Source: Nemertoderma westbladi
Lineage: Eukaryota; Animalia; Xenacoelomorpha
Length of the DNA stretch: 59,622 nucleotides
Assembly (NCBI GenBank): GCA_032718475.1
Contig: JAUCBJ010006787.1
Location: 1 to 59,622, forward strand
Reading direction: 5' to 3'
Made by a program: the position numbers and the translations under genes. Below, piece by piece: positions 1-55,060 of this stretch (position 1 is its first letter; each line of letters starts with the position of its first letter). The notes below the pieces were generated by a model that saw nothing but the letters and a program-made list of their open reading frames with translations, ran no database searches and was not told the origin of the DNA.

Positions 1-1260
1 GCGCTTTCGAAGACCTTTAGCAGTTTAACCTGCCAAAATTTATATGTCTTTTCGTTAATTAAAACCACTTTAGCATACGACAATAATTTATGCTAATACG
101 CAAAACATTAGCCGAAGTCAGCCCATGCGCGATCATTCACCCGATGGATCTACACCCGGGAGACTGAATTCGGATGCTTGAATTGTATTATTACAGTGTA
201 AGGTTGCAGTGTATACCTAATGTATTATTCGATAGATCGTTAATAATTAATCTCTGACAGATATTATTGGCTTTCGGGAAATATTAACAGTTCCTTTAGG
301 ACGTGGCGCTTTATCTATTTAAACAGAACTAAGACTTATACTAAAACGCAACGATACTGCTTATGATTAAAGTATAAAGCGTATTCTTTAGGAAATACTT
401 TGTTACCAATCACAATCATACACACTATTCTGCCGACAGTCAGTATATTTGATCACACATAAAGAGAGCAGTAATTGACTCACGTAGGGTCTGCTAAATA
501 ACATTGGATTCAATACACACCACATTAATATAAATCGCAATTGTTATATATAGCCGGTCTCTCTAACCTGTAGTGTTATCAAGAAAATTGGGAATTGGGT
601 GATTTATCCGTATTATCCAAATAGCAATATTTCCATCAACAAATATTTACAATTAATAACTGACGGTAAAATAACAGTACAAACAATATGATTAATGAGT
701 TAGTATCAAGATTAGTTAATGAGTATGATTATCAAGTTAAATTAGTTCGTTAAGTTAGGTAACAGTTTATACTTTCGATAATTCAAGCAGTTTACGGTAC
801 AGCAGTATCTATCCAAAAAATGCCGGTGTTTCTGGCTTAGACAGCAATAACAACAAAGTATCAACTCTAAAACAGTAAGACAGAACACTCTCCTTATGAT
901 CGGCAGGAAAGCTACACGTCGACAGGAAAAACCGCCCTGATTGGCCCAAGCCAAACAAAGAACCACGCGGCCAATGGCTGTTTCCATGTCAGCAACCAGC
1001 TGCTAGATGTCGTAATATGAATCATTACGGCTAAGCTGTGAAAGGTGGTTGGTGCATTACAAGTTTTTGTCTTACCATGTCCGCTAAAACACGTATATAG
1101 CAGAATTACTTTTATGTCCGTTAAAACACCTGTAAAGGTACCTTGCGGGCGAGGGGAATATATATACAGTTAGAAAACCTTTTTTAGAGTATTCCAGCGC
1201 CGGGGGGGGGAACTGGCCAGCAAAGGCAAACGTATCAGTTATCCCACAAAAGCTTTTACA
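1..1260 (-). mobile_element. LTR of Bel/Pao family 1 (diverged relative of the 34833-52185 element); left end just outside the window
   Basis: Colinear similarity to LTRs 34833-35972 and 51001-52185 (gaagacctttagcagtttaacctgccaaaatttatatgtc ... ggtaccttgcgggcgagggga ... aaaagcttttaca). Ends in ACA at 1260 and abuts LINE RT sequence, so it is inserted into the LINE. Carries a roughly 80-90 bp insertion near 1165-1240. Confidence 0.9.
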
Positions 1261-9579: not shown

Positions 9580-9588
9580 GGGGGGGAG
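9580..9588 (+). other. Polypurine tract of element A
   Basis: GGGGGGGAG immediately 5' of the TGTAAGCGG LTR start defined by the solo LTR at 24951. Confidence 0.8.
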
Positions 9589-10075: not shown

Positions 10076-10079
10076 ACTT

Positions 10080-18163: not shown

Positions 18164-19004
18164 TGTAAAAGCTTTGAAGAACATCTGATGGCCTTAGTTA
18201 TAAGAACGTAAATCTATTAACTTGTCATTTGACTTAACTCATTTCATATCGCATTTCATATAACTGAACACATACTGACTGTTCACCGCACTGTTTTAAT
18301 GCTGTTTTATATTGTGTTAATTGCTGTTTATATTGTGTTAATTGCTGTTTATATTAATGGATGTTATATTTGGAGAATACTGATAAATAATCGTAAACCC
18401 CTCAATCTTCTTGATACTGAGGTAAGTGGAGGAAGAGTCTACCGGTAGCAACTGTGACTCAAATTATAGTGGTTTTTTGTGTGAATTAAATGCTATTTCA
18501 TAATCCCTATGTGTGTCAGTTGCAATTCTCCCTTATATATGATAAAAATTAGTGACGGTTGGCAAATTAGTGTAAATTAGTGTGAAGTAGTGTGAAGTAG
18601 TATGAAGTCATATGAAGGTTAATAAAGCATCTCCTAAAGAATGCGCTATTTACGAAACTCCGTGGCCATCTAGTTGTGATTAGTGTAAGTCATAACTCTG
18701 TTTTTATACTTAAAGCGCATCGTCCTAAAGGAACTGTTAATATTTCCCCGAAAGTAAATATAGTTGTCAGAGATTATATAGTAGCAATCAATCGAATAAT
18801 ACAAAGTGGCCTACACCGCAATAACTTCCTAGGGAACCCGAATCCAGTCTCCCACACCGTGGGTCATACGCCGCGCACGGACTGGCTTCGGCGGATGTAA
18901 CTTCAGTACACCAGGTAATTGGTAAGGGCTAAAGTCGATTCATAATCAAAAGGACATTTTTAAAATTGGCAGGTTAAACTGCTAAAGGTCTAAAAGCGCG
19001 AACA
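18164..19004 (+). mobile_element. 5' LTR of a truncated family-1 Bel/Pao element (U3 internally deleted)
   Basis: Starts TGTAAAAGCTTT and ends ggcaggttaaactgctaaaggtctaaaagcgcgaACA, matching the reverse complement of LTR 51001-52185. Confidence 0.85.
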
Positions 19005-20101
19005 TTAATAGATTTTCATTCTTATTGCCCAGTAGGCAATAAACCCAAAACGTACTGGTAGGACGGTAAACTGGAGGCCTGATCCGAACTGGTACTTACA
19101 GGTACAACAGTATTAGTTCGATTGTGATAATTATATATACCGGTAGGTCTTAATATTTAATCGGGGACTGCAGCCCTGGTTTTTATTAGGATTTTACTTA
19201 TTTCTGTCAGTTTTATTTATCTGTAAGTGTAATATTGAGCAGAAGGCGTGTAAGCCTGCTCAGATTGTATAAATAATTTGTAGGCCGGATTGTTGTCTAA
19301 CTGTTGTTAGGTCTGAGGCGATTGCAGTGTATGTAGAGTGTCTGTCCGATAAAGTGCTAGTTAGGAAGGTGGAGGCATCCAGTGCTGTAAGGTAAATCCC
19401 CCACGAAAGAATAAGTCGTACTACGTAGTTAGAACGCTTACTAACTAACCATTTCGGAGATTGCATATACTGTGGTTTATTTAGGCTTGACAGTAGTCTG
19501 CCAGCATTTGGTCTGTGTTTTATTTGAATAGTATGTACGGGTAGCGTAATAATTATTATTCAGAGTTTATGCAAGTATTTGCAACCTACATCTCCCCAAG
19601 TTTATTCCTTACAGTAATTATGCTTGTTATGCATACTGTTATAGTTAAAGTAACCCCGGTACTACTTCAGGACTGCTTGGCGTAGGACAGACTGGTGATT
19701 TTGTGCTCCGGTCACTCCAGCAGATACCGTGGTTCTTTTGGATGTTCACGTATATTTAACTGCTAGTTATATGTTGTATAAGTACTTGTACCTAATTTAG
19801 GGTTTAGAGTACAGTGCTTTCCTGAAAGTGATTTAGTGTGTAGGCAGTATATTTGTGTTGTAACGTGGTTAATAGGTCTGTTTGCTCTGGTAGGCTTCGA
19901 TAATTAACCTCTAGGTATAGGACACTCCGGGTACATAATGTAGTGCTTATAGTGTAAGACTATAAGCCGTCAGACATTTCCTTATCTGGACAACGCAACG
20001 TACTTAATACTACTTTATTGGTTTCAAATGCCGTAATTTCCTGTCAGATTGTAAGAACCAGAAATTCTAACTCCTTGTTAGTCTGGTTTGTAAATTTCTT
20101 G
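19005..20101 (+). mobile_element. 5' leader of the truncated family-1 element
   Basis: Colinear with the reverse complement of about 49480-51000 (e.g. tgtgctccggtcactccagcagat, gtacttgtacctaatttagggtt); cut off by the TTAA insertion at 20102. Confidence 0.85.
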
Positions 20102-20105
20102 TTAA

Positions 20106-30915: not shown

Positions 30916-30919
30916 TTCT

Positions 30920-33870: not shown

Positions 33871-34832
33871 TTTTGGTCTTTCTGGATATTATATTATAAT
33901 ATAACCAGCTAAAGACCCTCAATACTTTATTTTTTATATTTTTTCTATCATCTTTACAGTAAACACCTCATTAAGTAGTACCTTAGACAACACAAAACAC
34001 AAGATAAAGAAGCCTAATAGACCACAACAGGAGGGCGCCCGCAGTTACCATACTGTAGCTGTGTTTACAGTGTTGAGTTATTCAGTTATTGGAAATTCCC
34101 TTTATTTCATCCATTGGTTATTTTTAAAGTGTTTAATTTATGGTATATTATAGGAAGGGATCTAGGGGTCTTAACATCGAATGATAAGTTTATTTTACCG
34201 AAAATAACTTATCTTCCCTTCCTATAAATAAATGTATAATAACAAACACCTCGAAAAACACAGCTTGCCACCACATTGTTACTATCATTAATTTATGGTA
34301 ATTCCCAAGTACATAAAGCAACTAAATGTAGTTAATCTTAATAGTAAGTGGCTGCGTTTGATTCGAATAGCCTATACCCCCCTCACTTTTGAACTGATGG
34401 CGCTGGTGACATGTCGATCCACCCAATTGTAGTCTGCTGATGCTGAAGGTAATATCTTACTGTTTTAAACAACAACATAGCTCAAGATTGAAAAGTTAGC
34501 TCTACATGTATATCAATTTCCCCTGGCATTTGCACTCCTTTCCAAATTACTTGACTAAATAATAATTCCCCGTTTTCAATATAAATTAGCTAATAACATT
34601 TCTTAATGATGATAAAAAAAGGCGCAACTAACACTCAAACCACTTTTTAAGGTACCGCATACTTTTTAATACTAGCTAGCTTATGCATCACTAAGTCAGT
34701 GGCTCAAAATGACCACAAACACGTGATTAGTGGGTTTGAAAAATTAATTTGATTTACTTTAAAAAATAAGGGAAAGTAGCAGGTTACAGTGGCTGTTCGA
34801 TTGCTTTCGAGCATTATAAACGAGAATTTATT

Positions 34833-35972
34833 TGTACGCGCTTTTGAAGACCTTTAGCAGTTTAACCTGCCAAAATTTATATGTCTTTTGGTTTATAAAT
34901 AGACTTTAGAAAATGACAAGTATTTAATACCAAGAAACACAACATTAGCCGAAGCCAGCCTAGTGCGCGTCCATTCACCCGCTGGATATACCCGGGAGAC
35001 TGGATTCGGAGGGCTTAGATTGTTATTGCAGTGTAAGCTTACTGTATTATTCGATTGATCGTTAATAAATAATTTCTGACTAATATTATTCACTTTCGGG
35101 AAATATTAACAGTTCCTTTAGGACGTGGCGCTCTATCTAGGTAAACAGAGATATGACTTATACTAAACACAACGGTAAGTCGGTAAGGCTTATGATTCAC
35201 GTATGAGGCGCATTCTTTAGGAAATGCTTAGTTATCAGTCACAATCATGCACACTACCGGTAACACACAATAATGCACACTAATTTGCCGACCGTCAATG
35301 AATTTTATCATATAAAGAGAACAGCAATTGACTCATGTAGTGCTTATCAAATAGCATTAAACTCACTACAAACCACAATAATATAAGTCGCAATCGCTAT
35401 ATGTAACCCGTCTCTCTAACCTGTTCTCCAAATAATATTCAACCAACTGATACAAAATAATAACAACAGTAAAAAGCATTAAGACGGTAGGTTAAGATAT
35501 GATATGATAATGTATGTGCCGTTAAGACTGGACTGATAACAGTTATACGCTCTATAATCTAAGCCTACTAATGTTTCTTCTAAAGTCTGAAACGAATTGA
35601 CTCTAGAGCCGGTGTTCCTGGCCTAGATAGAAACAACACAACAGTATCAAGAAAAACAGTAAGACTGAACACTCCTAGCACGATCTGCCGAAAATCTCCA
35701 CATCGACAGTAAAAATCGCCCTGATTGGCTGTTAAGCTAAACAAAGAACCATGTGTCCAATGGCCGTTTCCATGTCAGCAACCAGCTGTTAGATGTTGTA
35801 ATCTGAATCATCAAGGCTAAGCTGTGCCAGAGTATTTGACGCATTGCGGGTTTTATGCCTAACCATGTCCGCCAAAGCACACATACAGAAGAATGACTTT
35901 TATGTCCGTTAAAACACCTATAATGGTACCTTGCGGGCGAGGGGACTGATTATATCCGCAAAAGCTTTTACA
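34833..35972 (-). repeat. 3' LTR (1140 bp)
   Basis: Direct repeat of 51001-52185; by eye about 7 substitutions, a 2-bp indel and a 43-bp deletion. Confidence 0.96.
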
Positions 35973-35982
35973 CCGCTCCCTA
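35973..35982 (-). other. Polypurine tract
   Basis: Sense strand TAGGGAGCGG directly precedes the TGTAAAAGC start of the 3' LTR. Confidence 0.7.
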
Positions 35983-36005: not shown

Positions 36006-37776
36006 TTAGTCTTTTTTGCGCGGACGGCGTTTACGCAGTTTTTTAAAGCTGGCCAGAGTCCTTTTCTCTTTGGGGCGAGCCACTTTACAAGGAGGGCTAT
36101 AACTCCTGGGTGAAGGGTGCAATATAATTGCATCAGAGGGTGTAGGATTATGGTCGGTGTATCCGCCAGTCGAAGTGCCGGGTTGATTGACATCAACGTC
36201 GGGGGAGAGGGGTCTAACGGCTTTGAGAGCGCGTTTTAAGACAGCCGCTCTTACGGGTCCTTTACGAGTGGTCTGAACGAGAGCCGTGGGTGGACCATAG
36301 GCAGTTAGAAACCTCCGGGGTTTAATGGTTCTTTCCAACTCGCGTTCGCGGGCTCGGTATTCGTAAGGCCGTCGATATACTTCCTGTAACTCGGGGTGTG
36401 AGTTAACAAATAAGTCTCCATAGTCCGGATCCTGACGGATATAATTGATTAAGTTATAGGAATGAAGGTCGCTAGGATTAACACTCCTGAGAAATTTGCG
36501 TACGAACTTGGTTGAAATACATTCTCCGACGTGCTTCAGTAGTTCGTAACTCGATATGCGTGATTTCTGTTCGACAGAAGCGAATAGATAAGGATGGAAC
36601 GCATAAATTCCTTCGTAAGCGCGTCCAGGATAATAACGATGGCGCGAATCACAATGTAAATCAGCGTTCGCTTCCCAAGCTCTGATGTAACGTAGTGTGA
36701 TCATTTCATCTATGCTTTCCAAATCGTGATTAAAAGGGCAATCGAAAGCGTCCCTTTAGTTGACAATGGTGACATTGAGTCATAAATTGAGGGCAAACCG
36801 CAAAAATGTGCAAGTTATTGAGTCTGCAATATGCGCAATAGATTTCCATCGTAGGTTGTTCTTGGAAATAGGAACAGCGGACGTTTGTGTCCATGGGCGT
36901 AACATGGTCTCTCGATGCGCATAACCGACAACGTTGCCTAGAAATATAGTTGGCATGTCGATAATCGTACGCAGTGAGACACTGTGGACCTTGATACCAT
37001 TCTAGGATGTAATCGTTGTCGCTGTTCCGGGGCGCGATAGGTTGAATCTCCTCAGATTCTAGGCATATTGGTTCGTCTTCCCAGTGCATAGCTGAGGTGG
37101 GCGTGTCTGTCTCTTCAAGTGGACCTATTGTCTGAATTTCCACGACCGAATAACCTGTGGGGATTCGAGGTCTTTGTATAACAGAGGAGTGCAAGTTCGA
37201 TATACAAATCTCTTTGAAAATGGCAAATCCAGCGCTATCTAACTTCTCTGCAGCTGAGTTTCTTAGGCTGAGCTTGATCAAAGCGTGGTCTTTAAATTGG
37301 CTATCCACGTTGCGGAACGGGGTTAAAAATTGCCGGAAACATTCGAAGCGGATGAATTTATTATGTTCATCTAGCTTAGCGAGTTTGGTCCCAAGTATTA
37401 ATGGATGGTCGCGTATAGTACGACTGCACACATCGGCTAGCCAACCGGCAAGTGCGGTGTTTTCAAATATCGTGTAGATAGCTAAGGAGGGACGGAGTGG
37501 AACACTCATGAAGCTATACACGGCGCCAGTTGCGGTCAATGGTCCATCAAAGTATAATCGAGAATAATGGTCTCCGTATACTTGTTGATAGTTGATGGGA
37601 TTTCCGACTTTGAAATTCCATCCGTATTCCTGAAAGGCAAGATGTCCGATGGAAGTTCGTTGCACCTTTGTAATGTTGCTGGACGTATTAGCATACATGG
37701 TGCGAAAGAAACCTCGGCCTTCTGCCCATGGAGCAATCAGCTGAGTATCTACGAAAGGATATGGGATATTTTCCAT
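36006..37776 (-). pseudogene. Accessory gene copy 3: C-terminal half of the exonuclease-like domain, CCHC knuckles and basic tail (two ORFs split by a frameshift)
   Basis: FVDTQ..SIGHLA..NFK..YQQVYG..IYTIFE aligns with copy 4 (CVDTQ..GIGYLA..DFKP..YNKIYG..IYVVME); CRLCASRDH, CAYCRLNNLHIFAVCP, CHHCQLKG[fs]AFDC; ends KKLRKRRPRKKD. ExoI/II not recognisable upstream. Confidence 0.75.
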
Positions 37777-38769
37777 ATTCCAAAAGTCGTTTGCCTAATA
37801 TGTCTTCCATTGATGGTAGTGGTAGAGAGCAGGGGAAGACCTATGTCGTATTCAGAAATATTCAGAAATACGATCTCAGTTCTCAGTTGGAGGATTCAAT
37901 CGTTCGAAGACTATCTCCAAATGAATTTATCCCTAGTGCGAGGAGGTAAACACCAGTTCAAGGATATGTTTGTCTCAGTTGTTCTACATAAGATTTATAT
38001 CTCTAATCATTGAGGGAGGTGAACAACCAGATTTATGACACATAATGGTACCAGTTGTTCACAAACAATCTGCGTGTCCTTTCAGTCCTTGTTTGTATCA
38101 CGGTTGTGGACTTAAGGAAATTATTGATGGTTGATTTTCTAATCAACAACGAGAGGGTGGAAGTTGATATCATAAATATCAACAGAATGTGACATGGACA
38201 AGAGGTGCGGACACCAATATGAGCATCCAGATTAACAGTAAGGGATGGGAGGTTTAGTAAGAGGCGGTATGATCAATACCACGATACGGCAATGATTGGT
38301 CGATCGTCTCCCAAAGCTCGGAGCGCGTTGGGAAGAGAAGGTGGGACGAAGTATGTTGTATTTTCAATAGCGATGTATAGAGTGATAAAGGGAGTAAAGA
38401 GGAAAAAGGATATATGGTAGTATCTATAAGATACCACAATGGACATGTTTCCGTCACATCATCATTCATTCTTGCCCTTTAATTGTGACACTGATCACAA
38501 TAATTACAGGAAAACGATGAAGGAAGAGAAAATTACAGCCTCCCGAAGGAGACCGCCCGCGAGCACCCGTGCCCCGGGGAAAACTATTCACATTATGGAC
38601 CCTGGACATTAACCCATGTCTCTTCTCCAGTGTTCTCCTCTATTTGTCTTTACTAGCTTTCTTCCACGTTCTATCTTTCGAGTTGTTTTCGAATAAAATT
38701 CTCGTGTTCCATTCTCGGTTCATCATGCCGACTCCGCTGGGTATGATATTTAAATAGAACCATTTCCCT

Positions 38770-39048: not shown

Positions 39049-40488
39049 ATCTGCTATCTGAGTTTATTAATATCAAAATGAGTTTATGTTTAGGCTAGCG
39101 GGCGTCGCTGCCTACCTCTCGTTGCCCCCGGACAGTGGGATTCTCAGCGCCGATGTACCGTCGTCGCGGTGTTTACGCCAACATGTAGCAACAGCACGAC
39201 AACGATAACCGGCACAAGTCACTCCACTGTCCGTCCCAAAGGCTTGGATCCATTTTAGGTTCTTTCTATAGGAGAGTTGGGTTACTTTTACAATTGCGAC
39301 TAGCTACTGTAAACATACTTTAGCAGTAACATTACACCTATAAACGCACAAATTCCACACAACTGTCACCAATTGTACACATACAGGCCATTTGTCCGTT
39401 AGTCAGTGCCTTCCAGAATGTCACGTTATTACTGTGTATCCTTGGATACTAACAGGGTGCTATGTATTCTCTATGCTATGCAATGGGACAAGCTTTCTAT
39501 TGTTCTTTTAACTTGCTTCTAATTCTAGCGTGGGTGTTGCTATGGTGACATTATGGAAAGCTAGCGGTAGAATTAGGGTAATTCTCATGCATACAGATCT
39601 GGAATGCTATTTAATAGTAATTCTTTAATTGTCAATATCCTCTTTATACATGATTTTATTAATTTTATTGGCTATTGACTATATGTCGGAGATTCTCGCA
39701 CTCTAATACACTCAATATGATGAATCTCCGCTCCCATGATCTATTAATTAATGGAATTTTGGGAATGTTATAAATTGCACAAAATGACAATTTATGAAAT
39801 TCATTTAAAATATGAATTTAAATTTATTCCCGTGAATTTTATTATTTGATGTTAATATTGACACAATTTTTATTCCAGAGCATGTCTGGCGACCTAGGAT
39901 CCTTAATTCTATAAAATTGTCTTTTAAGAGTATCGGTAAGTACTGCGATATCTTAATCGACTAGAAATTTTAAAGGATCTGAATTTTACAAAATTTTAAT
40001 AAATATTAAATTAATATTTAAGATGGGTACCAATTTATTCCAGAACTTGTCTGGGGACGTTAACCACTGATTCTAGAATTTGTCTTTCAAGTATATCGGT
40101 GGGTGCCGCGATATCTTAATCGACTAGAATTACAGATGGTCAAAAGGTTTAACAGATTTATTTGCGTTTTTACGCTACTGTTAGAGGGACATCACGCTAC
40201 TATATGTATTATTTAATATAAGGTAGAAGAGCAATATCGCACGAAGCAATGTCAGTGTGAAGAGGCAAGTCGTTTCCAAGGTCTACCCAGAGCTTGGTTT
40301 AGCCGAGACACGAGGATCTGAACTTTGCATTCCTAATACTCTGCCTACCAATAATACTTGAATATAGTAGTGGCTTTATTGTACTTTAATAAGTACAGAC
40401 ATTTCATCTTACTGTAGTCACGTATTTATAATATGATACGGACAGTAAGGAAAGAGAAAAATTATTTCTCGCCGTCACACTAAATATA

Positions 40489-43400
40489 TTATATATATGT
40501 AATTACGTAATAAACACTAATATATTGCACTAATCTACTAAATAATCTAAAATAACCTTCTACTAAATAAAATTGAATAAAAACGATTATAATAAAGTAC
40601 ATAATAATGTTCACATATAAAATATAATAAAATAGATAAAATAATATAGTCATACACCCACTCCAGACGTATATTGGGGAGTCCCTAGATGTTTGAGGAA
40701 TTAGGGAGGTGGTCGTGGGAAGAGTGTCTTGTCTTCCATAGTTTCCGGAGAGTTCTCTGTCTCTTTCCAGTAAACATAAACGACCAACTGGGCGGTTGAG
40801 TTGTTGCGTCTCAAAGATTATACCTGGCTTCTTGAAGTTACGCCGCATGACGACGAGTTCTACCGAGCGTACTAAACCATCATCCTAGATGTGAGTCTCG
40901 ATGATACGACCTGTCTGCCACCGTTTACGTGGGAGGTCTGGATCTACAATAAACACCATATCTCCGGCGCTGACGTTTTCTTGCTGCTCAAACCACTTAG
41001 TTCGAAGTTGTAGCGTGGGCAGATAATGTTTCTCGAAATGGTCAGCGAAACGACGGGATAGCAACTGCATAAGTTGCCAAGTTCGACGGCAGTATTCGTC
41101 TCTGTCGGCAATCTCCGATCGTGGGAGCATGGCTACAGGTTTCTTCAGTAGGTAGTGCGCGGGTGTTAGCGCTTCCAGGGAATCGGGACTCGATGAGACT
41201 GGCATAAGCGGTCTCTCGTTGAGATAGGCAGCTATTTCCTCCATTAATGTCCGCAAAAGTTCGTCGGTGAGATACACGCGGCATGGCACTATAAAGTGAA
41301 ATGCGGTCTTGACACTTCTAATTAATCTCTCCCAACTTCCTCCCCACCAAGGGGCGTCGGCGGCGTTGAAGGTCCAGCTAGACGCTGTTATCCTTAGCTG
41401 ATCGTCCACCTGTCTTTGGTTCCAGTCCTTCACGTAAGCCTGTATTTCGTTGTTGGCACCAATGAAGTTCGTTCCCTTATCCGATCTCATGGTATTACTC
41501 GTCCCGAAGCGAGCGATCTGTCGGCGTAAACTTAATACGAAGCTGTTGGTAGATAGATCGTTCACCATATTGAGATGGATGGCTCTACAAGTCATGCATA
41601 CGAAGATGACACACCATCTCTTGACTATAGTCCTAGCACGATATACTTCAATAGGGCCAAATAAATCTACACCAGTATTAGTAAAAGGTGGTTCATAGAA
41701 GCTTACTCGTTCCCTAGGTAATTCTGCCTCTCGCTGTGTTAAAGGCCTACTGAATGCTTTCCTACAGGGTATGCAGTTCCTAAGAACTTGGTTCAGAGCT
41801 CTACGGGGTTTATCAAAATAATAGCGAGTTCGGATTTCGCTAAGAACTCGTTCTCTACCAGCATGATAAAGTTTGCTGTGAACATCTACAATCATCTTGA
41901 TTTGTACTTCAAGATTTCTAATGAGTATGGGGAATTTAGTGTCAAAGGATAATGGCGCATTGGTGAGCCTTCCTCCAACACGTATTAACCCATCTATCAT
42001 TGTGCTAGAGAAGCGATCCCGTAAGCGCATCTGCGGATTTCTCAACAACAGGAAATACTTATCGGAATCTTCATAGCATTGCAGGAGTCTCAGTATCTGC
42101 TTATTGGTTTCTTCATGCTCCTGGTAACTGATTTTTTCCTTTAGAAACCGGTCGGATGTCTTATATTTGGGTAAATTTTTAATAACATGAACTTGCGCAG
42201 ATGTCAATGGAGCGGTATCACTAATGGTCTTCGTCCTGGAGTAGTGATGATGAAAACATCTCCTTAAATATGTGACGGCTTTACAGAGCCGATTCCAGGA
42301 ACTGTAGTGATGCATTGCTCTCTGCAGCAGGGGTGAGATTCCTTGCGAGACGTCTGGTATTCCAGATTTCCAATCTCTATCTCTAATTTCCACAACAGAC
42401 TTAATTGTGGCGAGGGATTGTGGATCCGAAGCATCATTTCCGGAAGTATGTAATACAGATAGATCGATCGTCGGTTTAAATAACTTCGATTTACTCGCCC
42501 GGGTTTTAGATTTGACTGTCTCCGCTCCCTTGGCTTGTCTAATCTCTGCCGTAGTAAGGTGAGGAGGCCATTCATCCTCTTCCTTGCTCAGGAAGTCGGG
42601 TCCACTCAACCAGTCTGGAGTATCTATCAGTTCCTGTGGAGTCGCTCCCCTGGAGGCGATATCGGCTGGATTAATCGTACCAGGGCAATGTCTCCATTGA
42701 TCTATCTTTGTGCGACTAAGAATAATAGCTACCCTGTTAGTAACAAAAACGCTGAACTGACAGACTTCATTGGTTATATACTCTAACACGAGTAAAGCGT
42801 TGGTCCAATAAACAGTTTTCTCCAGTGGATAGTCGATTTGTTCTGTTACGTTCCGGCCGATGGCTGTAGCGTATAAAGCCGCTTTTAACTCCGCTCGAGG
42901 AACCTTTAACTTGTTGTTAATCAATGCCTTAGAGGTAACCAAGGCGACTTTGATTCCATCCGGAGTTTCGACTCGCAGATATGCTACTATACCTATTCCC
43001 ATGTCGCTGGCGTCTCCAAACACATGGAGTTGATAGGAATACGTAGGAAGAACATGACCAAAATATGCACGGGAAATTACAAAGCTCTCGATGGCAGGTA
43101 GAGAATCTTCCCATTTCATCCACTTCTTTAACAGTTCTCCCTTAAGTGGATCGTCCCATGAGTGGTTTTCAAGCCACATTTGTTGTACTAAACTCCGAGC
43201 AATCAATATAACTGGGCTAATAAATCCCAATGGGTCGAAATAAGTGCTCAGGATACTTAAACAAATCCGTTTGGTCCGAACTGGATTATCTCGCTGTTTT
43301 AGCTGAAAAAACAGGATATCTCTTTCAGTGTCCCACTTCAAGCCAAGCGTCTTGGTTTCTGGAAGATCGTCCTTTATTAAGTCTAGGTCTTTCGTTCCTC

Positions 43401-44907
43401 GGTCTTCTACCGGTATCGCTTCCAGAAACTCACGGGAGTTGCTAGTGAATTTTGTCAGTCGAAATCCACCTCTTTTCAAACACTCTACCGTTCCTTTCGC
43501 GACATCAATGGCTTCTTCTTCTACTGATGGAAGGGACCTTAAATTATCGTCCATGTATATATTACGCTTGATGTTGTCTATCACCTCTTTTGAGAAGGCG
43601 TCTCGGTTGTCATTCGCAGTGGTCCGCACCACGGAGCAGGCGTTGGAAGGGCTTGATATGATCCCAAAAGCCTGGATGGTCATCCAGTACTCTACCGGTT
43701 TCTGGTTGAGATCTCCTTCAGGCCACCACAGAAATCTCAGGCTGTCTCTATCTCTATCCAGCGCCTTGACTTGTAAGAACATTCCTTCTATATCGGAGGC
43801 GAACGCGATGGAATATTGTCTTAATCTTAAAAGTATTCCCAACAAAGATTGGAGTAAGTTGGGTCCTGGTAACAACTCGGAATTAAGGGATTGGCCCATA
43901 TATAGAGCGGAGCCATCGAATACGACTCGTACTTCGTGGGGTTTACCGGGTTTGGGAACGTAATGATGTGTTAAGTAATACGTTCTCTCAGTCACTGGTG
44001 TTCCTTCCGGTACTCGCTCCGCGTATCCCTTTGTTATAAATTTCTTCAACTGAGTTTGGTACATTTCTTTAGCTGAAGCATTAGCCGTAAGGCGTCGATG
44101 TAATTGAGCGATTCTTTTCTCTGCCAAGGGTCTGTTATTTATAAATCTAGGTTCTCGTTTTCGAAATGGTAGGCCGATTTCATATCTACCTTGGTCCTTT
44201 AAAAAACGTGTAGTTGTTTCCTGGATTTGCTTGGGTCTTTCTTCTTCTATCGATAGGGCCTTATCATATGAATTGGGCTCTACCAGTTCTTGAGTAAAGA
44301 ATCGTACGGCGAGTTCGTCCCGAGTTCTAGTGTTGTAGCGCTCTATCTCATCATTTAGTTCGTCATTGTAATCAATGGGTCCCGATGGGCGAATCAGTTG
44401 ACATAGGTTCACCTGGTTTTTCCACGTTTTGTTTTCTGTAAGTAGGTCGATTGTGTTCTCTTCATCGAAGAGTTGGTAGATGTCGTCATTATCTGAGGAG
44501 TATGGTGTTCCCTCAGTTAGTTCTTCCACCCCACTGCTCTCCACTTCCCAATCGTTTACTTGGTATATTCGTTCTTGTGGCATTCTCTCTTCGAGAGTTT
44601 TGCGGGAAGGGCCAGTAAAGTACCAACCTACTCTAGTTCTTACCGCATAGGTTTGCAGTGGCTGCGGTTGAGCAGGCCGTTTCTCCAATGTCTCGAGCGC
44701 CTCATGCGCGTTTTGGCCGATGAGTATTTGCACTCCAGGATAATCTGTCTGGAATCGAGGTATCTTAAGATGTTGGATGCTCTCATCCTCGTCCCAATTA
44801 TAAAGGTCTGCTTGGGTAGTAGCGAAGTTCTTTATAGCCACCATTTTTACCGACCTTATACCTTGTGCTCCTAATTTATCCTGGGGGGTGGACACTGGAC
44901 AACACAC
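40489..44907 (-). pseudogene. pol: Bel/Pao pol (RT, RNase H, integrase) with an in-frame TAG at 40885-40887
   Basis: VRVVFDGS, SLNSELLPGP, DIEGMFLQV, YMDD, FDPLG, FGDAS, RAEL, WTNA (usual D is N), NPADIASRG, HHCC, GVDLFGP / SDKGTNF / WERLI; reading continues in frame after the stop as DDGLVRSVELV..RPVGRLCLL. Confidence 0.95.
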
Positions 44908-47059
44908 CTACATAGTAGTCTGCCGTTAGGGTAGATTTCCAAACCTGCATAATTCCTGACATATTCAATTTAGTCCGGAATTTGGGTTGTCCAGCAAAGA
45001 TATCTTCGGCTAGTTCTTGATCGATGAATGTTCCTGTGCTGCCGGAGTCAAGGAGGGCGTTCACTATGTAACTTTTGTTAGGACCGTGAACTCTTACCTG
45101 CACTACAGGAAATTCTCTGATTCCTACGTTGGAAGTTGGAGCTTTCCAAGATGGTTGTCTGGCAAAAGTAGTTGGGGGAAACTCATTGTCGGTGTCCTTT
45201 TCGTAAGTAAGTGCTCGATACACTGCGGTATTTATTAGGTAACAGGATTCGTTGGCGTCGGAGAATTCGTCAGTATAGAATCCTTCCATCTCAGACTCTT
45301 GATCAGTGTCATTTACATCACTGAATTGGACATGTAGTTCGGGCTCACTTACCTGATTCGGGTTGTCTCGTTCGAACTCACTGTGTAACAAGATGTGATG
45401 TTTCGCGCCACACTTTGCACACTTTACGTCGGAGTAACAGGTTCGCCGTTGGTGTCCTGATCTGAGGCAATTATAGCATAACCGCTTATCCCACATGACT
45501 GCACGTTGGTCTACAAGGGATTTCTTTAGAAATTCAGCACACGCACTCAAACGGTGGGTCCCGTCGCACAGCGCACAGTTAGGTTTTATGTTACTCACTT
45601 TACCTTGGGTAACCTGATGCACTCTCGTTCTTTCTTCGGGCTTTCTTCCGTGCATTCTGTTAGGAGACTGAGGAGGGGTCTTGGCAACCTGTTCTCTCCT
45701 ATCTTTGGTTCGAGCCTTGTATTTACTTACGTCCTTTGAGGTTTTGCTAACGTAGTAAGATCGGTCAGTGTCTTTCCCGCTGTCCTCTTCTTGAGAAGCT
45801 TGGCTTTCGCCATCGTCAGTGTAACACACTGGTGTTACTCTTCTCCTAGAAACGGGTTTCTCACTTACCTTATTTTCCGATGTTTTCTCTCTGGACTGCT
45901 TGATGAGTTGTAGTTTTACTTCACCATCTAAGAAGGACATGAGATCAGCCATGGTAGGACTTCGTCGTTGCTGCTCATTCATATACAACACTTTCTTGTC
46001 CCAACGTGTACATACTCCACCCTTTGGTAAAGTAGAGACTACGGCTCCAATAACCATGGAACTCTGATATTCATGAGACTTACCTAACCAGTCCAATTGT
46101 ATACAGATCTCCTGAATCTCATCGGAAAACTCTATAATCCCGCTACTAAGGAAGTTTCTGGGGGCTACTAATTTTGCATACAAATACTTAGCTATGTTAT
46201 CCTTGTTACCATACCTGATGTTTAATGTATCCCAAACTTGTCTTAATCCATCTGGGTGTCCAATGAACTTTAACGCCATTAACTTGGGAGGTCCTTCCAA
46301 GCACTTGATGAGGAATCTAAGTTTCTCTCCGTTAGATAGTACAGAGTTCTGTATGCTATCTTTGTAATATTCATTGAAAGGTAACCATTTCATCTCATCA
46401 CCATTGAATTTGACGATTTCTCCCACTTTAACCGCTTGGCGGGCTTCTGTTCTAGCCATCTGACGCGTAAAGCTTTCTTGGGCCATCGTGTTATTTAATA
46501 TCGAATTATCGGTATATGAATTTCTCGGATTATTATCAGGTCCATAGGGAATATCATTAACAACAGGTTTATAATCACCCTTAATAGGGTTTGCTATAGG
46601 AGTTTCTACTTCACTAGCAGTATAGATGCGTGTAGGCTCCACACCTTGCGCATGTAATACTTCAGACCTAACAGGTTGACACAATGTTACTGGGGGTATT
46701 GGTATACCCTTTTGTATATTGACTAATTTGTCGCGTTCTAGCGCGATACTTTGCTGCACTTCTTGCAATTCTGCCCTACCTTCCCTTACTGTTCCCTTAA
46801 GTTGGTGGACAGTCTCCTGCATCTGTCCGAGCAGGAGGTTCATCCCCCGCCGTCCCTCCTCTACCCACTCGACCGCCGAAGCGGGAGTCGCCAACATTGT
46901 AGCGGGCCGACGCTGGACGACGGGAGACAAATCTTTGATTTCTCTCTCTGCTTCCAGGACAGGGATATTCTCATGGACTGTTCTACCGGCTACAGGCAGT
47001 GTAGTACTGTGTAAAGGGAATTTAGAGTTAAGCTCTGGAAGTACAGGGGTCTCTAGCAC
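44876..47059 (-). CDS. gag: Bel/Pao gag core, three zinc knuckles and aspartic protease
   Basis: KFNGDEMKWLPF..EKLRFLIKCLEGPP..LNIRYGN; CALCDGTHRLSAC, CYNCLRSGHQRRTC, CAKCGAKHHILLH; ALLDSGSTGTFI. Removing one C from the C6 run near 44885 restores the frame to pol. Confidence 0.93.
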   Translation of the reverse strand: MLETPVLPELNSKFPLHSTTLPVAGRTVHENIPVLEAEREIKDLSPVVQRRPATMLATPASAVEWVEEGRRGMNLLLGQMQETVHQLKGTVREGRAELQEVQQSIALERDKLVNIQKGIPIPPVTLCQPVRSEVLHAQGVEPTRIYTASEVETPIANPIKGDYKPVVNDIPYGPDNNPRNSYTDNSILNNTMAQESFTRQMARTEARQAVKVGEIVKFNGDEMKWLPFNEYYKDSIQNSVLSNGEKLRFLIKCLEGPPKLMALKFIGHPDGLRQVWDTLNIRYGNKDNIAKYLYAKLVAPRNFLSSGIIEFSDEIQEICIQLDWLGKSHEYQSSMVIGAVVSTLPKGGVCTRWDKKVLYMNEQQRRSPTMADLMSFLDGEVKLQLIKQSREKTSENKVSEKPVSRRRVTPVCYTDDGESQASQEEDSGKDTDRSYYVSKTSKDVSKYKARTKDRREQVAKTPPQSPNRMHGRKPEERTRVHQVTQGKVSNIKPNCALCDGTHRLSACAEFLKKSLVDQRAVMWDKRLCYNCLRSGHQRRTCYSDVKCAKCGAKHHILLHSEFERDNPNQVSEPELHVQFSDVNDTDQESEMEGFYTDEFSDANESCYLINTAVYRALTYEKDTDNEFPPTTFARQPSWKAPTSNVGIREFPVVQVRVHGPNKSYIVNALLDSGSTGTFIDQELAEDIFAGQPKFRTKLNMSGIMQVWKSTLTADYYVGVLSSVHPPG

Positions 47060-48723
47060 AGGAGTGGCTTTGGGAATGAATGAATGACAGGCCTAATTAT
47101 TTCAGGCTCATCAACTATAGTAGGGAGTCTTTTGACCTTAATAATTTGGTCTGTAGGTTCTATACTACTTAAGTCTGTGCTAGCTAGTTGTCTTCTAACA
47201 GCTGGGGGCAAATCAGGCAATTTGTGACGGTAAGATGTTTTTCTACGCCTGCTTAGACGAGATCTATTTCCTCCGCCTTCAGGATCGGTGGTTTCGCTTT
47301 CCTCCGATGATGTGTATCCCTGGCGTTTGGGAGTAGATCTTCTCATCATCTGCATGTGACTAGCAGTTAACTGTTTATTTATGTTGTCTTGCGTCTCTTG
47401 CAGATTTTCCAACTCTAGTTGGGTAGTCTCCTCAGACGCTCTCCGTTCTGCTTCTGCCACCGCTGCTTTTCTTTCTGCTTCTGCTTCTGCCGCCGTTGCT
47501 TTTCTTTTTTCTTCTGCTTCTGCCGCCGTTACTGCTGCTGCCTTTCGGTCCTCTATCCGTTTTTTCTTTACTTGTTCTTCTTGGACTCTAGCGAGGCGGA
47601 GTTTTTCATCAAATTTAGCTTGGTTCGCAGCTAACATTTCCGCATCGATTGAGTCCAACACAAGCTTGGTTCCTTCACTATTGGGGCGAAGTCCAGCCAG
47701 TCGTCTCCTCAACTCTTCATCACCCAAGAAGCGTTGATAGTCTGACAGATAGATGTCTATGGCGTCTCTCGAGGGCGGCTTCTCTGCTGCTGTCTCTTCG
47801 CTTTCCACTTGAGAAAGGGTGGCATCGGTTGGTTCTTCATAGGTTGGTCTCTCAGCCAGCTGGGATTTCCACTGGGCCGTTTCTTGAACTTTGAGACCTA
47901 CCCGCTGGAACCAAGTCTTGACAGCAACCTGCAGCGATGTGTCCTGTCTTCTTTTGGAAGTTTCCTCAAAGGCTGATAGGATTAGTCTAATGCGTAGGGT
48001 TCTTTCGCGTACTTGATAAAGCAGCTCTTCCTGCTCTTGAGGTCCTTGGGGTTGTCGAAACAGTTGTTCTTCCAATCTCTCTAAGGAGCCGAAGAATCCC
48101 TGCACATATCCTGCTGCCGACCTCTTCCAAACAGCTGGATCCATCGTATCTTTAGCCACTCCCATCCTGTGTATATCTTCCCAAGTAGCTTCGGACAAAT
48201 CTAACGGGAGTCCGGGTCCGGGAAAGTACCATTGTGACTCGACAATAGACATCAATTCTTCCCTGGCGTATCCCGCATAACTATCTTGGGTCGCTCGCTT
48301 ACTTCTCGCCCAATCGACTTGGTGTTCCTCCACCGCAATCAATATAGTAGTTAGCACTGCGGCAGGAAGGGTGAGAAGGGGATCCGAGTAGGCTGTAGCC
48401 GCCATCTGCACTCCGCGTTCGGGGGTCAGCTCTACAGTATCCGAACTACTGGAGCTATCGGGTCGCTGGGAACGAGTTTCTTGAATAGGATGTTGTTGCT
48501 GTTGGGCAGCTGCTTCCTGGTTCCGTTTGACCTGGGCCCGAGTGCCGATGATAGACCTACGGTGTTGGATTAGCCTAGGGTCTGATACTACTACTGGAGG
48601 GATGACCTTTCTTTCAGTAGGAGGTGAGCTGAACCCCTTTCTTAATCGCTCCACACTCCTATCTGTGTCACAGATGGTTGTATCGATTAGACTGTCTGAC
48701 AGGGTTTGCTGGGTGTCAGACAT
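47053..48723 (-). CDS. N-terminal Gag extension / ORF1, 556 aa, coiled-coil rich
   Basis: Long ATG ORF directly upstream of gag and overlapping it in a different frame; AEAEE/KRKA helical repeats; no recognised domain. Confidence 0.75.
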   Translation of the reverse strand: MSDTQQTLSDSLIDTTICDTDRSVERLRKGFSSPPTERKVIPPVVVSDPRLIQHRRSIIGTRAQVKRNQEAAAQQQQHPIQETRSQRPDSSSSSDTVELTPERGVQMAATAYSDPLLTLPAAVLTTILIAVEEHQVDWARSKRATQDSYAGYAREELMSIVESQWYFPGPGLPLDLSEATWEDIHRMGVAKDTMDPAVWKRSAAGYVQGFFGSLERLEEQLFRQPQGPQEQEELLYQVRERTLRIRLILSAFEETSKRRQDTSLQVAVKTWFQRVGLKVQETAQWKSQLAERPTYEEPTDATLSQVESEETAAEKPPSRDAIDIYLSDYQRFLGDEELRRRLAGLRPNSEGTKLVLDSIDAEMLAANQAKFDEKLRLARVQEEQVKKKRIEDRKAAAVTAAEAEEKRKATAAEAEAERKAAVAEAERRASEETTQLELENLQETQDNINKQLTASHMQMMRRSTPKRQGYTSSEESETTDPEGGGNRSRLSRRRKTSYRHKLPDLPPAVRRQLASTDLSSIEPTDQIIKVKRLPTIVDEPEIIRPVIHSFPKPLLC

Positions 48724-50059
48724 GTTTAGTTATACAGTTGAATGCTTACTGCTATAGTTACAGTTAAAGCAAGTCTAGTAATTCAGTATGACCGTTGGCC
48801 TAGTACCGGTAATTTATTGCAGTATATTAGAATACCGGTATACACTTATAGTATATATAAGTATTGTAAACTAGGTTTGTCACAGAGTACCGGTATATAA
48901 TTTTAGCACAAATATATATAAATATATAATAGGCCTATCGTGAATACCGGTATGCAGCTTACACTTATAGTATATATAAGTATAATTATGAACTAGAATT
49001 AATTACAGAATACTGGTATGATTTCAGCCCAAATTTATAGAAATAAATATAATAAGCCTATGGTAAATACCGGTATGTCAATTATTTTAGAATAATTGAA
49101 TTTCTGAATATTTTAGGGTTACTTGGTTACTTTAACTTACTTTATTACCATTATTTAAGCAGTAGTCCAACTGATATTGAGACCTAGTTGTTGTATGGCA
49201 GGCCTACTATTTATAAATCGTTTGAGTTGATTTATAATATTTATATACCCGTTTAAAATGGGTTTTGTCAATATTTGAAATAAATGTTATTATTTCTGGG
49301 GGAAGTCACTACACAGAAGCTGTGCGCTCTCAGTGAAGTGCTACTTATGGGACACTAAAACAGATAATTCTAATTTACCTAAGTTACTTAATACTACAAA
49401 TTACTTACGATACGGGTGAGATTAAATCTCTAATTAAACACAACAAAATATTACGTACGAAATTGTTAGGGTAATTTTACAGGAAGTCTACAAACCAGCC
49501 TAACAAAGGGTTAGAATTCTGGTTATTACAACGGACAGGGTACTACGGTATTTGAAAATAATAAGTAGTAGTAAATATATTGCACTGTCCAGATAGGAAA
49601 ATACCACCGCCTGATGACCTATAGCCGTATCGCTATAGGTACTACGTTATGTATCACGGAGTGTTCCTACCTGGAAGTTAATTACCGCGGACTACCAGAT
49701 CCAACGTGCCTATTAACCACTTTACAACACAAATATACTGCCTACACACTAATTACCTTCGGAAAGCACTGTACATTAAACCCTAAATTAGGTACAAGTA
49801 CTGGTACAACAAATAATCGGTAGTTAAATATACTTGAACAGTTAAAAGAACCACGGCATCTGCTGGAGTGACCGGAGCACAAAGTCACCAGTCTTTACCT
49901 ACGCCAAGCAGCCCGTGTAGTACCGGGGTTAATTTAACTATAACGGTATGTGTAACAAGCACAATTACTGTAGGAATAAACTTGGGGACATGAATGTTGC
50001 GAATAATCGCATAAACTCTGAATAATAAATATTACGCTACCCATACAGAATACTCAAAC

Positions 50060-50600
50060 AAAATACAAACCAAACGCTGGCAGACTACCACCAAGCCTAA
50101 ATAAACTACAGTATGTGCAGATTCCAAAATGGTTAGTTAGTATGCGTTCTAACACGGTAGTACGACTTATTCTTTAGGAGGGGATTGACCTTACAGCTCT
50201 GGCTGCCCCAACTTACTAACTGGCACTTTATCAGACAAACTCTACACACGCAGCAATCTCTTCAGACCTAATAATAGCTAGACAACAATCCAGCCTACAA
50301 AATATCTGAGTAATAACTATTACGGTACCTGAACAGACCACACAAACAAACACAGGCCAAAACGCTGGCAGAATACTGTCAAGCCTAAATAAACTACAGT
50401 ATATGCAGATTCCAAAATGGTTAGTTAGTATGCGTTCTAATACGGTAGTACGACTTATTCTTTAAGAGGGGATTGACCTTACAGCTCTGGCTGCCCCAAC
50501 TTACTAAACTGGCACTTTATCGGACAAACTCCACACACGCCGCAATTCCTCCAGACTCAACAACAGTCAGACAACAGTCCAGCCTACAATTATCTGAACA
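50060..50600. repeat. ~298-bp tandem duplication in the element leader
   Basis: aaacgctggcaga..caagcctaaataaactacagtat..cagcctacaa occurs at about 50072 and 50370; single copy in the related leader at about 19270-19520. Confidence 0.9.
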
Positions 50601-50774
50601 ATCTGATCAGACTTACACGTCTTCAGCTCAATATTAACTTACATGTAAATAAAACCGACAGAAATAAGTAAAATCTCAATAAAAAAACCAGGGCGGCCAT
50701 TCCCTGATTAAGTACTAAGACCTACCGATATACAATAATCAAAATCGAATAATACTAATGTACTTATACTGGAA

Positions 50775-50938
50775 GTACCGGTTAGGACAGTTGGGCCTAC
50801 AGACCTACAGCAGTACCGATTCTGGCAGTTGGGCCTACGGACCTACAGCAGTACCGGTTCAAGCAGTTGGGCCTACGGACCTACAGCAGTACCGATTCTG
50901 GCAGTTGGGCCTACGGACCTACGGCAGTACCGGTTCAG
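50775..50938. repeat. 38-bp minisatellite, 4 units alternating between two variants
   Basis: cagttgggcctac at 50788, 50826, 50864 and 50902; units end alternately in gattctgg and ggttca(a/g)g. Confidence 0.93.
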
Positions 50939-50989
50939 GTTTACCGGTTGACGGTACTTTCAACTTTATTGCTTACTGCAATAAAGACA

Positions 50990-51000
50990 ATAACTGTTAT
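50990..51000 (-). promoter_or_regulatory. Putative non-tRNA (self-priming) primer-binding site
   Basis: Sense ATAACAGTTAT abuts the 5' LTR, has no TGG, and is exactly complementary to sense ATAACTGTTAT at 51749-51759; the same relation holds for 19005-19015 and 18210-18220. Confidence 0.7.
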
Positions 51001-52185
51001 TGTACGCACTTTTGAAGACCTTTAGCAGTTTAACCTGCCAAAATTTATATGTCTTTTGGTTTATAAATAGACTTTAGAAAATGACAAGTATTTAATACCA
51101 AGAAACACAACATTAGCCGAAGCCAGCCTAGTGCGCGTCCATTCACCCGCTGGATATACCCGGGAGACTGGATTCGGAGGGCTTAGATTGTTATTGCAGT
51201 GTAAGCTTACTGTATTATTCGATTGATCGTTAATAAATAATTTCTGACTAATATTATTCACTTTCGGGAAATATTAACAGTTCCTTTAGGACGTGGCGCT
51301 CTATCTAGGTAAACAGAGATATGACTTATACTAAACACAACGGTAAGTCAGTAAGGCTTATGATTCACGTATGAGGCGCATTCTTTAGGAAATGCTTAGT
51401 TATCAGTCACAATCATGCACACTACCGGTAACACACAATACTGCACACTAATTTGCCGACCGTCAATGAATTTTATCATATATAAAGAGAACAGCAATTG
51501 ACTCATATAGTGCTTATCAAATAGCATTAAACTCACTACAAACCACAATAATATAAGTCGCAATCGCTATATGTAACCCGTCTCTCTAACCTGTAGTGTA
51601 TCAAGAAAATTGGGAAATTTGGGTTCTTTATAGATGTTCTCCAAATAATATTCAACCAACTGATACAAAATAATAACAACAGTAAAAAGCATTAAGACGG
51701 TAGGTTAAGATATGATATGATAATGTATGTGCCGTTAAGACTGGACTGATAACAGTTATACGCTCTATAATCTAAGCCTACTAATGTTTCTTCTAAAGTC
51801 TGAAACGAATTGACTCTAGAGCCGGTGTTCCTGGCCTAGATAGAAACAACACAACAGTATCAAGAAAAACAGTAAGACTGAACACTCCTAGCACGATCTG
51901 CCGAAAATCTCCACATCGACAGTAAAAATCGCCCTGATTGGCTGTTAAGCTAAACAAAGAACCATGTGTCCAATGGCCGTTTCCATGTCAGCAACCAGCT
52001 GTTAGATGTCGTAATCTGAATCATCAAGGCTAAGCTGTGCCAGAGTATTTGACGCATTGCGGGTTTTATGCCTTACCATGTCCGCCAAAGCACACATACA
52101 GAAGAATGACTTTTATGTCCGTTAAAACACCTATAACGGTACCTTGCGGGCGAGGGGACTGATTATATCCGCAAAAGCTTTTACA
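51001..52185 (-). repeat. 5' LTR (1185 bp)
   Basis: Direct repeat of 34833-35972, TG...CA ends, flanked by the TSD. Confidence 0.96.
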
Positions 52186-52870
52186 TTATTTCACTTGTGG
52201 TCAATTTGGGGTGAAGATCACTCACTCTTTTCTCTTGCAGTCAATGTGCGACACTATCTGGCCTCATAATATTATAACATAAAATAATGGTAGGCAGTTC
52301 TGTATTCTGAATTCGTGTGTGTCACATGAACGAAGCCCCGCCATAAACATCCTTGCCAAGATCTGACAAGAATCCTCAATTACTAACAAGAATTAACAAA
52401 AGTCTCAAATCACACCAAGACAATCCAAGCCAATGTCTCTCAATAACCTCCAGTATTATAAATATAATAAATAATAATGATCTTATTCGATAAACAGTAT
52501 TTGAAAAAGGCATCAATTTCGCCTTACTAAGGTCGTCCCTGATGTGCCTCCGTGGGTTTCGGCCGGCCGCTAGAAGACCGGCGCGGGCAGCGGTGGCGGA
52601 CGCGTCCATTGTGTGGGCGAACGCGGACTCGGACCCCGGGACGGCTTAGATGTTAGAGGTCTGGCGGGTTTGTTGGGTACCGGCAGTGGCAGAGTGGCAG
52701 ACTGGTGATGGGTACTGAACCAATTTGTATTGTTTGTATTGTTGCTAGGTAACAGTTTGAATCAGCTGGTGGTGGGTTATATTTGTACTTGTTTTGGTGC
52801 GTTTTTATATTCGAATTATTGTTTGTTAATATTATAATATATGGAGGCTTTTGAGTAAAAAAAAAAAAAA

Positions 52871-53032
52871 ATTTGAAAAAGGAGCACTCTTTGTTACTAA
52901 TTTTTCAATTGAGCGAAATTCAGCTATTCTGTCACTCATGTATCACTCATGTCACTCAGTATTCTATTCATGACAGAATAGCTGAATTTCGCTCAATTGA
53001 AATTAGTAACAAAGAGTGCTCCTTTTTCAAAT
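52871..53032. mobile_element. MITE-like foldback with ~62-bp inverted arms
   Basis: atttgaaaaaggagcactctttgttactaattt(tt)caattgagcgaaattcagctattctgtca and its reverse complement flank a ~36-nt spacer. Confidence 0.85.
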
Positions 53033-53211
53033 ACTGTTTATCGAATAAGATTATTATTATTTATTATATTAAAATTATTATAAATATTATAACTTGATAA
53101 ATTATTTTATACATTATGTTTATTGTAAGGTATTGCTTTTTATTTGAGCAACAAAATTATTTTCTCGCGCAGAATTTTACCAGTAGTACTTAATTATCAA
53201 TTATTTTTTAG

Positions 53212-54164: not shown

Positions 54165-54771
54165 GAAGCAAGTCGTAGGAGACAGTACGAGTCAAGTAAA
54201 AGCTTTTTGTTCTGTCTGATAATCAATTAGTGTGAGGGTAGTCCTGGTGGTGTATGAAAAATTTTCTAAACAACTTCAAACTATAATTATTATGTTGTAA
54301 TCATCTAATGAATTATAAAAGCTGTTGTGATTATAGAAGATAGAGAGCAGTTAGCGAAATGATTATTTTATTCTATCGTGTTGCCGTTATTCCCGACACC
54401 ATGGGGGAAAACGCTGATGCTGGAGGCGGAACTTTTCAGACCATGGAATTCCGGCCAGTCACCGGATATTGGTAGTGGAGAAGGAATACGTTCTTAAATG
54501 CAAGATTGCAGTTGAGAAAAGTTTCATTGGTTGGATATACTCTTTAATGTAACTTCCCTACAGTTGAATCTTGTACTAATCTCACTGAATCTTGATTGAG
54601 AATAAGTTGGGCTTCCCCAAACCAATATACACCAAATATTCACAATAATATAACACGATAATATAAATCCCTACAGTACATTATTTAATTACCCACTGTT
54701 CGCTTAGATTTTGACCTAACTAATGTTCCCCAATTTTCCCTCGGTCCTAGTCTCGGTACCGAAGTGTCGGT

Positions 54772-55060
54772 GTCGGTCGACCCTGTTGCGTGTCCATCCC
54801 ACCCTTCCCGAACCCCGAAGGTATCGGTCATCAGGAAAGCGGTACGGCTTGGCTAAGGGTCGGTCCAGTCGGTAGACCCTGTTGCGTGTCCGTCCCACCC
54901 TTCCCGAACCCCGAAGGGATCGGTCATCAGGAAAGCGGTACGGCTTGGCTAGGGGTCTGTCAAGTCGGTGGACCCGTTTGCGTGTCCGTCCCACCCTTCC
55001 CGAACCCCGAAGGGATCAGTCATCAGGAAAGCGGTACGGCTTGTCTAGGGGTCCGTCGGT
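54772..55060. repeat. 96-bp GC-rich tandem repeat, 3 units
   Basis: ccttcccgaaccccgaagg recurs at about 54803, 54899 and 54995. Confidence 0.92.

Follow-up and report, generated by a model that had tools for sequence, protein, structure and literature searches.

Self-priming of reverse transcription has been described for Tf1, in which the first 11 bases anneal to the PBS (primer-binding site), with RNase H cutting between bases 11 and 12 (PMC7175516, partial text). Tf1, Tf2 and Tj1, of the Tf1/sushi group of Ty3/gypsy chromoviruses, carry no tRNA site and have an 11-nt LTR segment complementary to the site just past the CA of the LTR, and the locus described here is like them in both respects (PMC7175516, PMC4600332, PMC10085805; partial texts). 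Self-priming has also been predicted from sequence for the plant TAR lineage of Ty1/copia (Houba, Osr-1) and for Tcn1 (PMC6317226, partial text), and its prediction outside Tf1/sushi implies that the trait arose in more than one superfamily. For Bel/Pao elements, the ICTV profile of the Belpaoviridae lists a genome of 4-10 kb with an 18-nt site at which tRNA-Arg or tRNA-Gly of the host binds, and calls their replication poorly understood (PMC8742986); an earlier sequence-only reading of the locus, which held Bel/Pao to be generally tRNA-primed, agrees with this profile.

The 59,622-nt stretch of DNA analysed here (the window) contained a Bel/Pao LTR element of 17,353 nt (~17.4 kb) on the minus strand, running from 52185 to 34833. 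Its 5' LTR (51001..52185, minus strand; 1185 nt) started with TG at 52185 and ended with CA at 51001, and its 3' LTR (34833..35972, minus strand; 1140 nt) also had TG..CA ends. Copies of the target-site duplication AATAA (minus strand) abutted the outer sides of the 5' LTR (left copy, 52186..52190) and the 3' LTR (right copy, 34828..34832), and a purine-rich tract abutting the 3' LTR (35973..35981, minus strand) is, from its position, the likely polypurine tract (PPT). Along with these LTR characters of Bel/Pao (two TG..CA LTRs, PPT and target duplication), the Pao-type gag and pol domains, in the order PR-RT-RH-IN, placed the element in Bel/Pao (Belpaoviridae); Pfam matches included Peptidase_A17 (E 1.7e-35), Integrase_H2C2, DUF5641 and DUF1759. 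Among the protein matches listed, PF05380 was common to all 120 relatives, and the nearest were 39-45% identical, most of the named ones coming from echinoderms, cnidarians, a mussel, a brachiopod and a fish. The element resembled the Belpaoviridae of the ICTV profile in its Gag-PR-RT-RH-IN order, LTRs up to 1.2 kb, PPT and 5-nt target duplication, but differed in the absent tRNA site, the length of 17.4 kb and the extra 3' frames (PMC8742986). Because membership is protein-based, the missing tRNA site departs from the description of priming and not from Bel/Pao membership. Unlike Tf1/sushi elements, the 17.4-kb element had Bel/Pao domains and ~750 nt between primer and site, and no match to a chromodomain was found in it (Pfam); it is not a Tf1/sushi member but probably works like one. 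Aligned over 1140 columns, the two LTRs showed 7 substitutions and, besides these, two gaps (43 and 2 nt), a likeness that suggests a young insertion. Tandem or near-tandem repeats, including 38-nt units and one 288-nt duplication, were present in the 2.2-kb leader and elsewhere inside the element (50774-50963, 50017-50597, 48830-49077, 39869-40129).

As the sequence-only reading had claimed, no TGG-type PBS followed the 5' LTR: the first 100 nt past it held no TGG, and the 18-nt site for a host tRNA 3' end described by ICTV was absent there. No tRNA genes were found within the window. The primer-binding position, that is, the 11 nt abutting the CA of the LTR (50990..51000, minus strand; sense ATAACAGTTAT), was exactly complementary to an 11-mer inside the LTR (51749..51759, minus strand, LTR positions 427-437; sense ATAACTGTTAT), the candidate self-primer. 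The 11-nt complementarity claimed earlier was reproduced (51000-50990 is the reverse complement of 51759-51749), and so was its exact extent next to U5, the pairing starting at offset 0 and ending at 11 on either side. The length and position match those of Tf1 in the available part of PMC7175516, in line with the Tf1/sushi-like geometry that had been proposed. A sequence-matched copy of the 11-mer, an alternative source of the primer, was located in the 3' LTR where the same reading had put it (35536..35546, minus strand, with its first base at 35546), and these three places were the only ATAAC.GTTAT sites in the whole window. An 11-nt match was obtained with 1 of 200 dinucleotide-shuffled LTRs and with none of 60 decoy leader 30-mers. 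That single shuffle, and the 10/11 identity of the two 11-mers of the main copy as direct repeats, would fit a chance match, or an AT-rich palindrome (such as a protein-binding site) that was duplicated as a short direct repeat; the earlier caveat that the 11-mer is a near-palindrome accordingly holds for the main copy. The 11-mer also shows a 6-nt likeness to the anticodon loop of a tRNA-Asn, a lead that came to nothing; the search gave five matches, which were in other genomes and were not host tRNAs. Contigs of run X1, whose kind is uncertain, covered all 30 bins of the main element with many variants; over 50950-51790 they left 51733-51790 uncovered, and no variant fell within 50990-51000 among the 40 of 62 variants listed. 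These contigs were not counted as evidence.

A sister-family LTR (18164..19004, plus strand; 841 nt, TG..CA), ~71% identical to the main LTR, was also present in the window. Its 11-mer (18210..18220, plus strand; AAATCTATTAA) occupied the place homologous to that of the main 11-mer, as judged by aligning the 46 nt upstream with the 11-mer itself excluded, and was the exact complement of the sister's own primer-binding position, which was non-palindromic (19005..19015, plus strand; TTAATAGATTT). The sister leader (19016..20105, plus strand) was 82-83% like 50787-49476, and no coding region followed it in the window. Between the sister and main families, positions 2, 4, 7 and 11 had changed on both sides of the helix with 11/11 pairing kept, so that PBS/LTR covariation, the check foreseen for family members, was found as four matched changes in one within-family comparison of two copies. 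None of 200 shuffles and none of 60 decoys gave the 11/11 match of the sister, and in a neutral-drift simulation the 11-mer needed in the sister arose in 9 of 2,000,000 runs at 29% divergence and in 8 of 2,000,000 at 36%. The sister 11-mers were 2/11 identical as direct repeats, and the near-palindrome caveat does not extend to them; palindromy and duplication therefore both fail as an explanation. With complementarity of 11/11 at the homologous place despite that 2/11 identity, and with the trait recurring in 10/11 relatives (see below), the reading as chance or duplication is largely refuted already, and we give it next to no weight. The pattern of matched changes indicates that the pairing is under selection. 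Upstream of its 11-mer the sister LTR had just 46 nt (18164-18209), against 426 in the main LTR, with the same first 12 letters; this short upstream part could reflect a deletion inside the LTR, or the LTR may naturally have a short U3. A third related LTR (1..1190, minus strand; ~74% identical) was cut by the window edge before its primer site, which for that reason could not be read.

Relatives were searched with an RT-RNase H alignment of the main element and 28 of the 120 listed proteins, which fetched 79 metagenome loci and 42 genome-contig loci; a direct repeat flanked the RT match in 42 of the 120 loci having one. For the pairing test, 17 loci were kept and one was dropped for an LTR cut by the contig end (L086), two were added from 20 further stretches (L156 and L165), and a near-copy of L165 (L166) and a repeat of L101 (L167) were excluded. 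Of the 11 relatives in the clade of the main element that lacked TGG and had both LTR ends known, 10 paired with their own LTR, beating 59 or 60 of 60 decoys. Two of these paired contiguously (L027, 10 nt; L080, 10 nt with a wobble). In the other eight, pairing required a junction between a GT[AG]AG donor and a YAG acceptor rich in pyrimidines; it extended over 11-15 nt, with a wobble in one, and splicing in these relatives is predicted from the motifs. Just 3-9 paired letters stood upstream of the donor in the splice-type relatives, and a polyadenylation hexamer occurred within ~100 nt past the junction in 7 of the 8. The remaining relative (L077) missed the strict pairing test, 20 of 60 decoys being as good, and gave 10 nt under loose rules, with 1 of 40 shuffles as good. 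Self-pairing was found in none of the seven TGG-type Bel/Pao elements, which were equalled by 20-58 of 60 decoys. A second case of matched change was provided by L084 and L085, which differed by three matched letter changes across the splice junction. In every case the helix lay where a primer would bind, at 0-4 nt from the CA, and wobble pairs were present in 2 of the 12 significant cases. Nine further loci with only the start of the LTR were scanned without a null and were not counted; four gave spliced matches of 11-15 nt (one of them from the same family as L003), two gave contiguous matches of 10 nt and three gave nothing.

The claimed self-priming was thus backed as far as tRNA-independent priming from the element's own LTR is concerned, by the compensatory change in the sister and by the contrast of 10/11 with 0/7. 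We consider it quite probable, from these pairing patterns, that RNA of the element's own LTR, in one form or another, serves as the primer. The main family looks like an intron-free form of a clade in which the prediction for most members is a primer put together by splicing. A spliced primer was also sought for the main element itself; a 10-nt junction match was obtained under loose rules, with 7 of 40 shuffles as good, and was rejected, since it was gone under strict splice rules and the sister copy had no GT at the corresponding place. No relative was found in viral contigs. Some bacterial and archaeal genome bins (L080-L121; G001-G005) were rich in Bel/Pao, with 72 matches in G001 and 63 in G004. 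The genome-contig Bel/Pao loci look like animal DNA within bacterial bins, and the Bel/Pao in the bacterial and archaeal bins is most likely host-animal DNA binned by mistake.

In a quick IQ-TREE tree (114 rows, 7 short rows dropped, unnamed rows only, midpoint root), the main element was sister to 91 rows within a 92-row clade (SH-aLRT 97), although its exact place is unsure because its branch is long (1.41). Every labelled self-pairing locus fell within the 92-row clade and the five TGG loci of the tree fell outside it, most rows being without a readable LTR.

Among the ways in which an own-LTR primer could be made, we favour Tf1-like 5' fold-back priming, with a probability of roughly 0.55. 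The 11-mer near the RNA's 5' end would fold back onto the primer site and would then be cut free, probably by the RNase H of the element, to become the primer for reverse transcription; we infer that the helix would form, that the 11-mer would be cut on its 3' side and that it would come from the 5' LTR. When tRNAs serve as primers, the site is rewritten from the primer during plus-strand synthesis. If this also happened here, the two 11-mers would stay exactly complementary, which fits the mostly wobble-free pairing observed. Our main grounds for proposing priming are that the helix takes the place of the tRNA site throughout the clade, lies at the primer position and has almost no wobble pairs. 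It is slightly better than an even bet, on the sequences compared, that a whole animal branch of Bel/Pao has given up tRNAs and is primed by a piece cut out of its own LTR RNA, with the host spliceosome joining two LTR pieces into the primer in most members and the main family representing a ready-made, intron-free form. With such a spliceosome-built primer, reverse transcription in most members would depend on splicing. In this the clade differs from Tf1/sushi, as relatives of the main element mostly need a splice junction, and none was described for Tf1/sushi in the available portions of the literature. It likewise differs from TAR and Tcn1, which belong to other superfamilies and hosts and for which the accessible part of PMC6317226 mentions no splice-built primer.

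Since covariation shows selection on pairing and not the use of the pairing, the helix could instead be structural, with a role in cyclisation, strand transfer, packaging or a switch, and another primer could be used, for example an internal tRNA fragment; priming by a tRNA half or an anticodon loop is known from Copia and Helenus elements (PMC6317226, PMC10886601; partial texts). We regard this as rather improbable, because in all cases the helix coincides exactly with the primer position, at 0-4 nt from the CA, and stands in place of the TGG site instead of beside it, none of the seven TGG loci pairing. Moreover, the sister families differ at 4 of 11 letters, a change that one conserved tRNA could not follow, and wobble pairs are rare.

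The sequence-only reading had also placed the transcription start at 51759, which is unsupported, and under fold-back priming the start need not be there. A TATA motif was found at LTR position 417 (sister, 36) and an initiator-like motif at 442 (sister, 62), both weak, with a TATA-to-initiator spacing of 27-28 nt in both copies that would fit a start ~17 nt downstream of where the 11-mer begins. Such motifs are short and common in an AT-rich LTR, with 14 TATA and 8 initiator-like matches in the main LTR. Were transcription to begin at that point, the RNA would carry the 11-mer solely in its 3' part. For the splice-type relatives, with so few paired letters ahead of the donor, transcription is unlikely to begin at the first of them. 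The spacing of the two motifs, the few letters before the donor and the position of the polyadenylation hexamer, as for a terminal intron, would suit a primer that acts on a second RNA in the particle and derives either from the 3' LTR part of the transcript or from a short RNA made of LTR alone. A spliced primer RNA with an unspliced template would also explain how the intron persists, but 5' fold-back keeps the intron as well if the 3' LTR copy is unspliced. Given the frequency of the motifs, and with no precedent found in the literature as far as its texts were available, we judge a 3' or trans source unlikely and retain 5' fold-back as the preferred reading. Downstream of the 11-mer, the LTR contained a possible splice donor (~51591) and acceptor (~51035) on the minus strand; the sister copy had a perfect donor consensus at the counterpart of the ~51591 site (18425-18432, plus strand), and the 43-nt gap of the 3' LTR was just upstream of this possible donor.

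The RNA around the primer site was predicted to form a U5 hairpin (51020..51043, minus strand), conserved in sequence in all four LTR copies of the window and with core pair probabilities of ~1.0, and a leader hairpin just 3' of the primer site (50964..50986, minus strand), an equivalent of which was predicted in the sister copy. The 11-bp duplex was weak (-10.1 and -7.9 kcal/mol). In folding of the main copy its probability was <=0.03, and a local hairpin of the LTR end and primer site competed with it; in the sister copy it reached 0.47-0.85 only with the shortest 3' extension and was 0.0 with longer ones. Minimum-energy folding did not recover the helix. The Tf1-type 'pretzel' would be pseudoknotted, so the folding method cannot draw it. 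The loop between the 11-mer and the primer site, ~750 nt in the main copy, was longer than in the relatives. For the two flanking duplexes of the Tf1 pretzel (PMC10085805, partial text), candidate partners were a segment at 51191..51206 (minus strand), with complementarity to leader sequence 3' of the primer site, and a second at 51130..51138 (minus strand), which can pair with the U5 end (51010-51004). Neither was significant alone, 4 of 60 shuffles being as good for the first (sister counterpart, 20 of 60) and 11 of 60 for the second (sister counterpart, 23 of 60), so that 4-23 of 60 shuffles equalled the best partners, which lay at homologous, nested places in both window copies. No flanking duplex was significant among 11 relatives.

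The coding region of the main copy was broken into three overlapping frames with a further in-frame stop, and the median length in relatives was 1820 aa. The first frame (47053..48729, minus strand) had no Pfam match at threshold. The gag-like frame (44876..47092, minus strand) had DUF1759 and a weak aspartyl protease match below the cutoff, and the pol frame (40489..44907, minus strand) encoded RT, RNase H, integrase and DUF5641, with the in-frame stop at 40885. In pol, 27 positions shared by at least 95% of the aligned relatives had a different residue, five of these positions being acidic. With its pol broken, the main copy could not show the priming reaction. Given how alike its LTRs are, the copy may already have been defective when it was mobilised, serving as a template in trans; some of the coding defects may stem from divergence of the family or from errors in the assembly. 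Two extra overlapping frames before the 3' LTR (36006..37794, minus strand) had Cys/His clusters and a basic tail and gave no Pfam, protein or Atlas match.

No published report of self-priming in Bel/Pao was found in full texts, titles and abstract openings, with subscription journals, Repbase and GyDB outside the scope of the search; this is consistent with the earlier statement that none was known. Related articles gave no such report in their available parts (PMC13524379, PMC3601003, PMC8220671, PMC6934838), those of PMC554778 having no mention of PBS or tRNA and those of PMC3118150 none of PBS, primer or tRNA. If the reading is true, Bel/Pao would be the third superfamily with self-priming, making it a repeatedly evolved solution, and the failure to annotate a PBS in these marine Bel/Pao elements would be explained. 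With a splice-assembled primer, genome replication would be coupled to RNA processing in a manner for which the literature search found no published example. Ready-made tests are provided by the matched changes that occur naturally in pairs.

In addition to the main element and its sister copy, the window contained a second, decayed Bel/Pao pol (12555-14236, plus strand), 34% identical to the main RT region, for which no LTR pair was found and which was located within a skewed stretch (~4000-18000). The minus strand also carried a LINE-like element in two broken copies (1256-3027 and 26529-30919), 93.8% identical over 1649 nt, which matched endonuclease and RT. Long inverted repeats at 52454-53077 and 24202-24316, comprising 57-nt arms, a 165-nt near-palindrome and 43-nt arms, are possibly small DNA transposons. 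Further, minisatellite arrays with units of ~80-165 nt were identified at 8336-8717, 20645-21377, 25974-26333 and 54762-55059.
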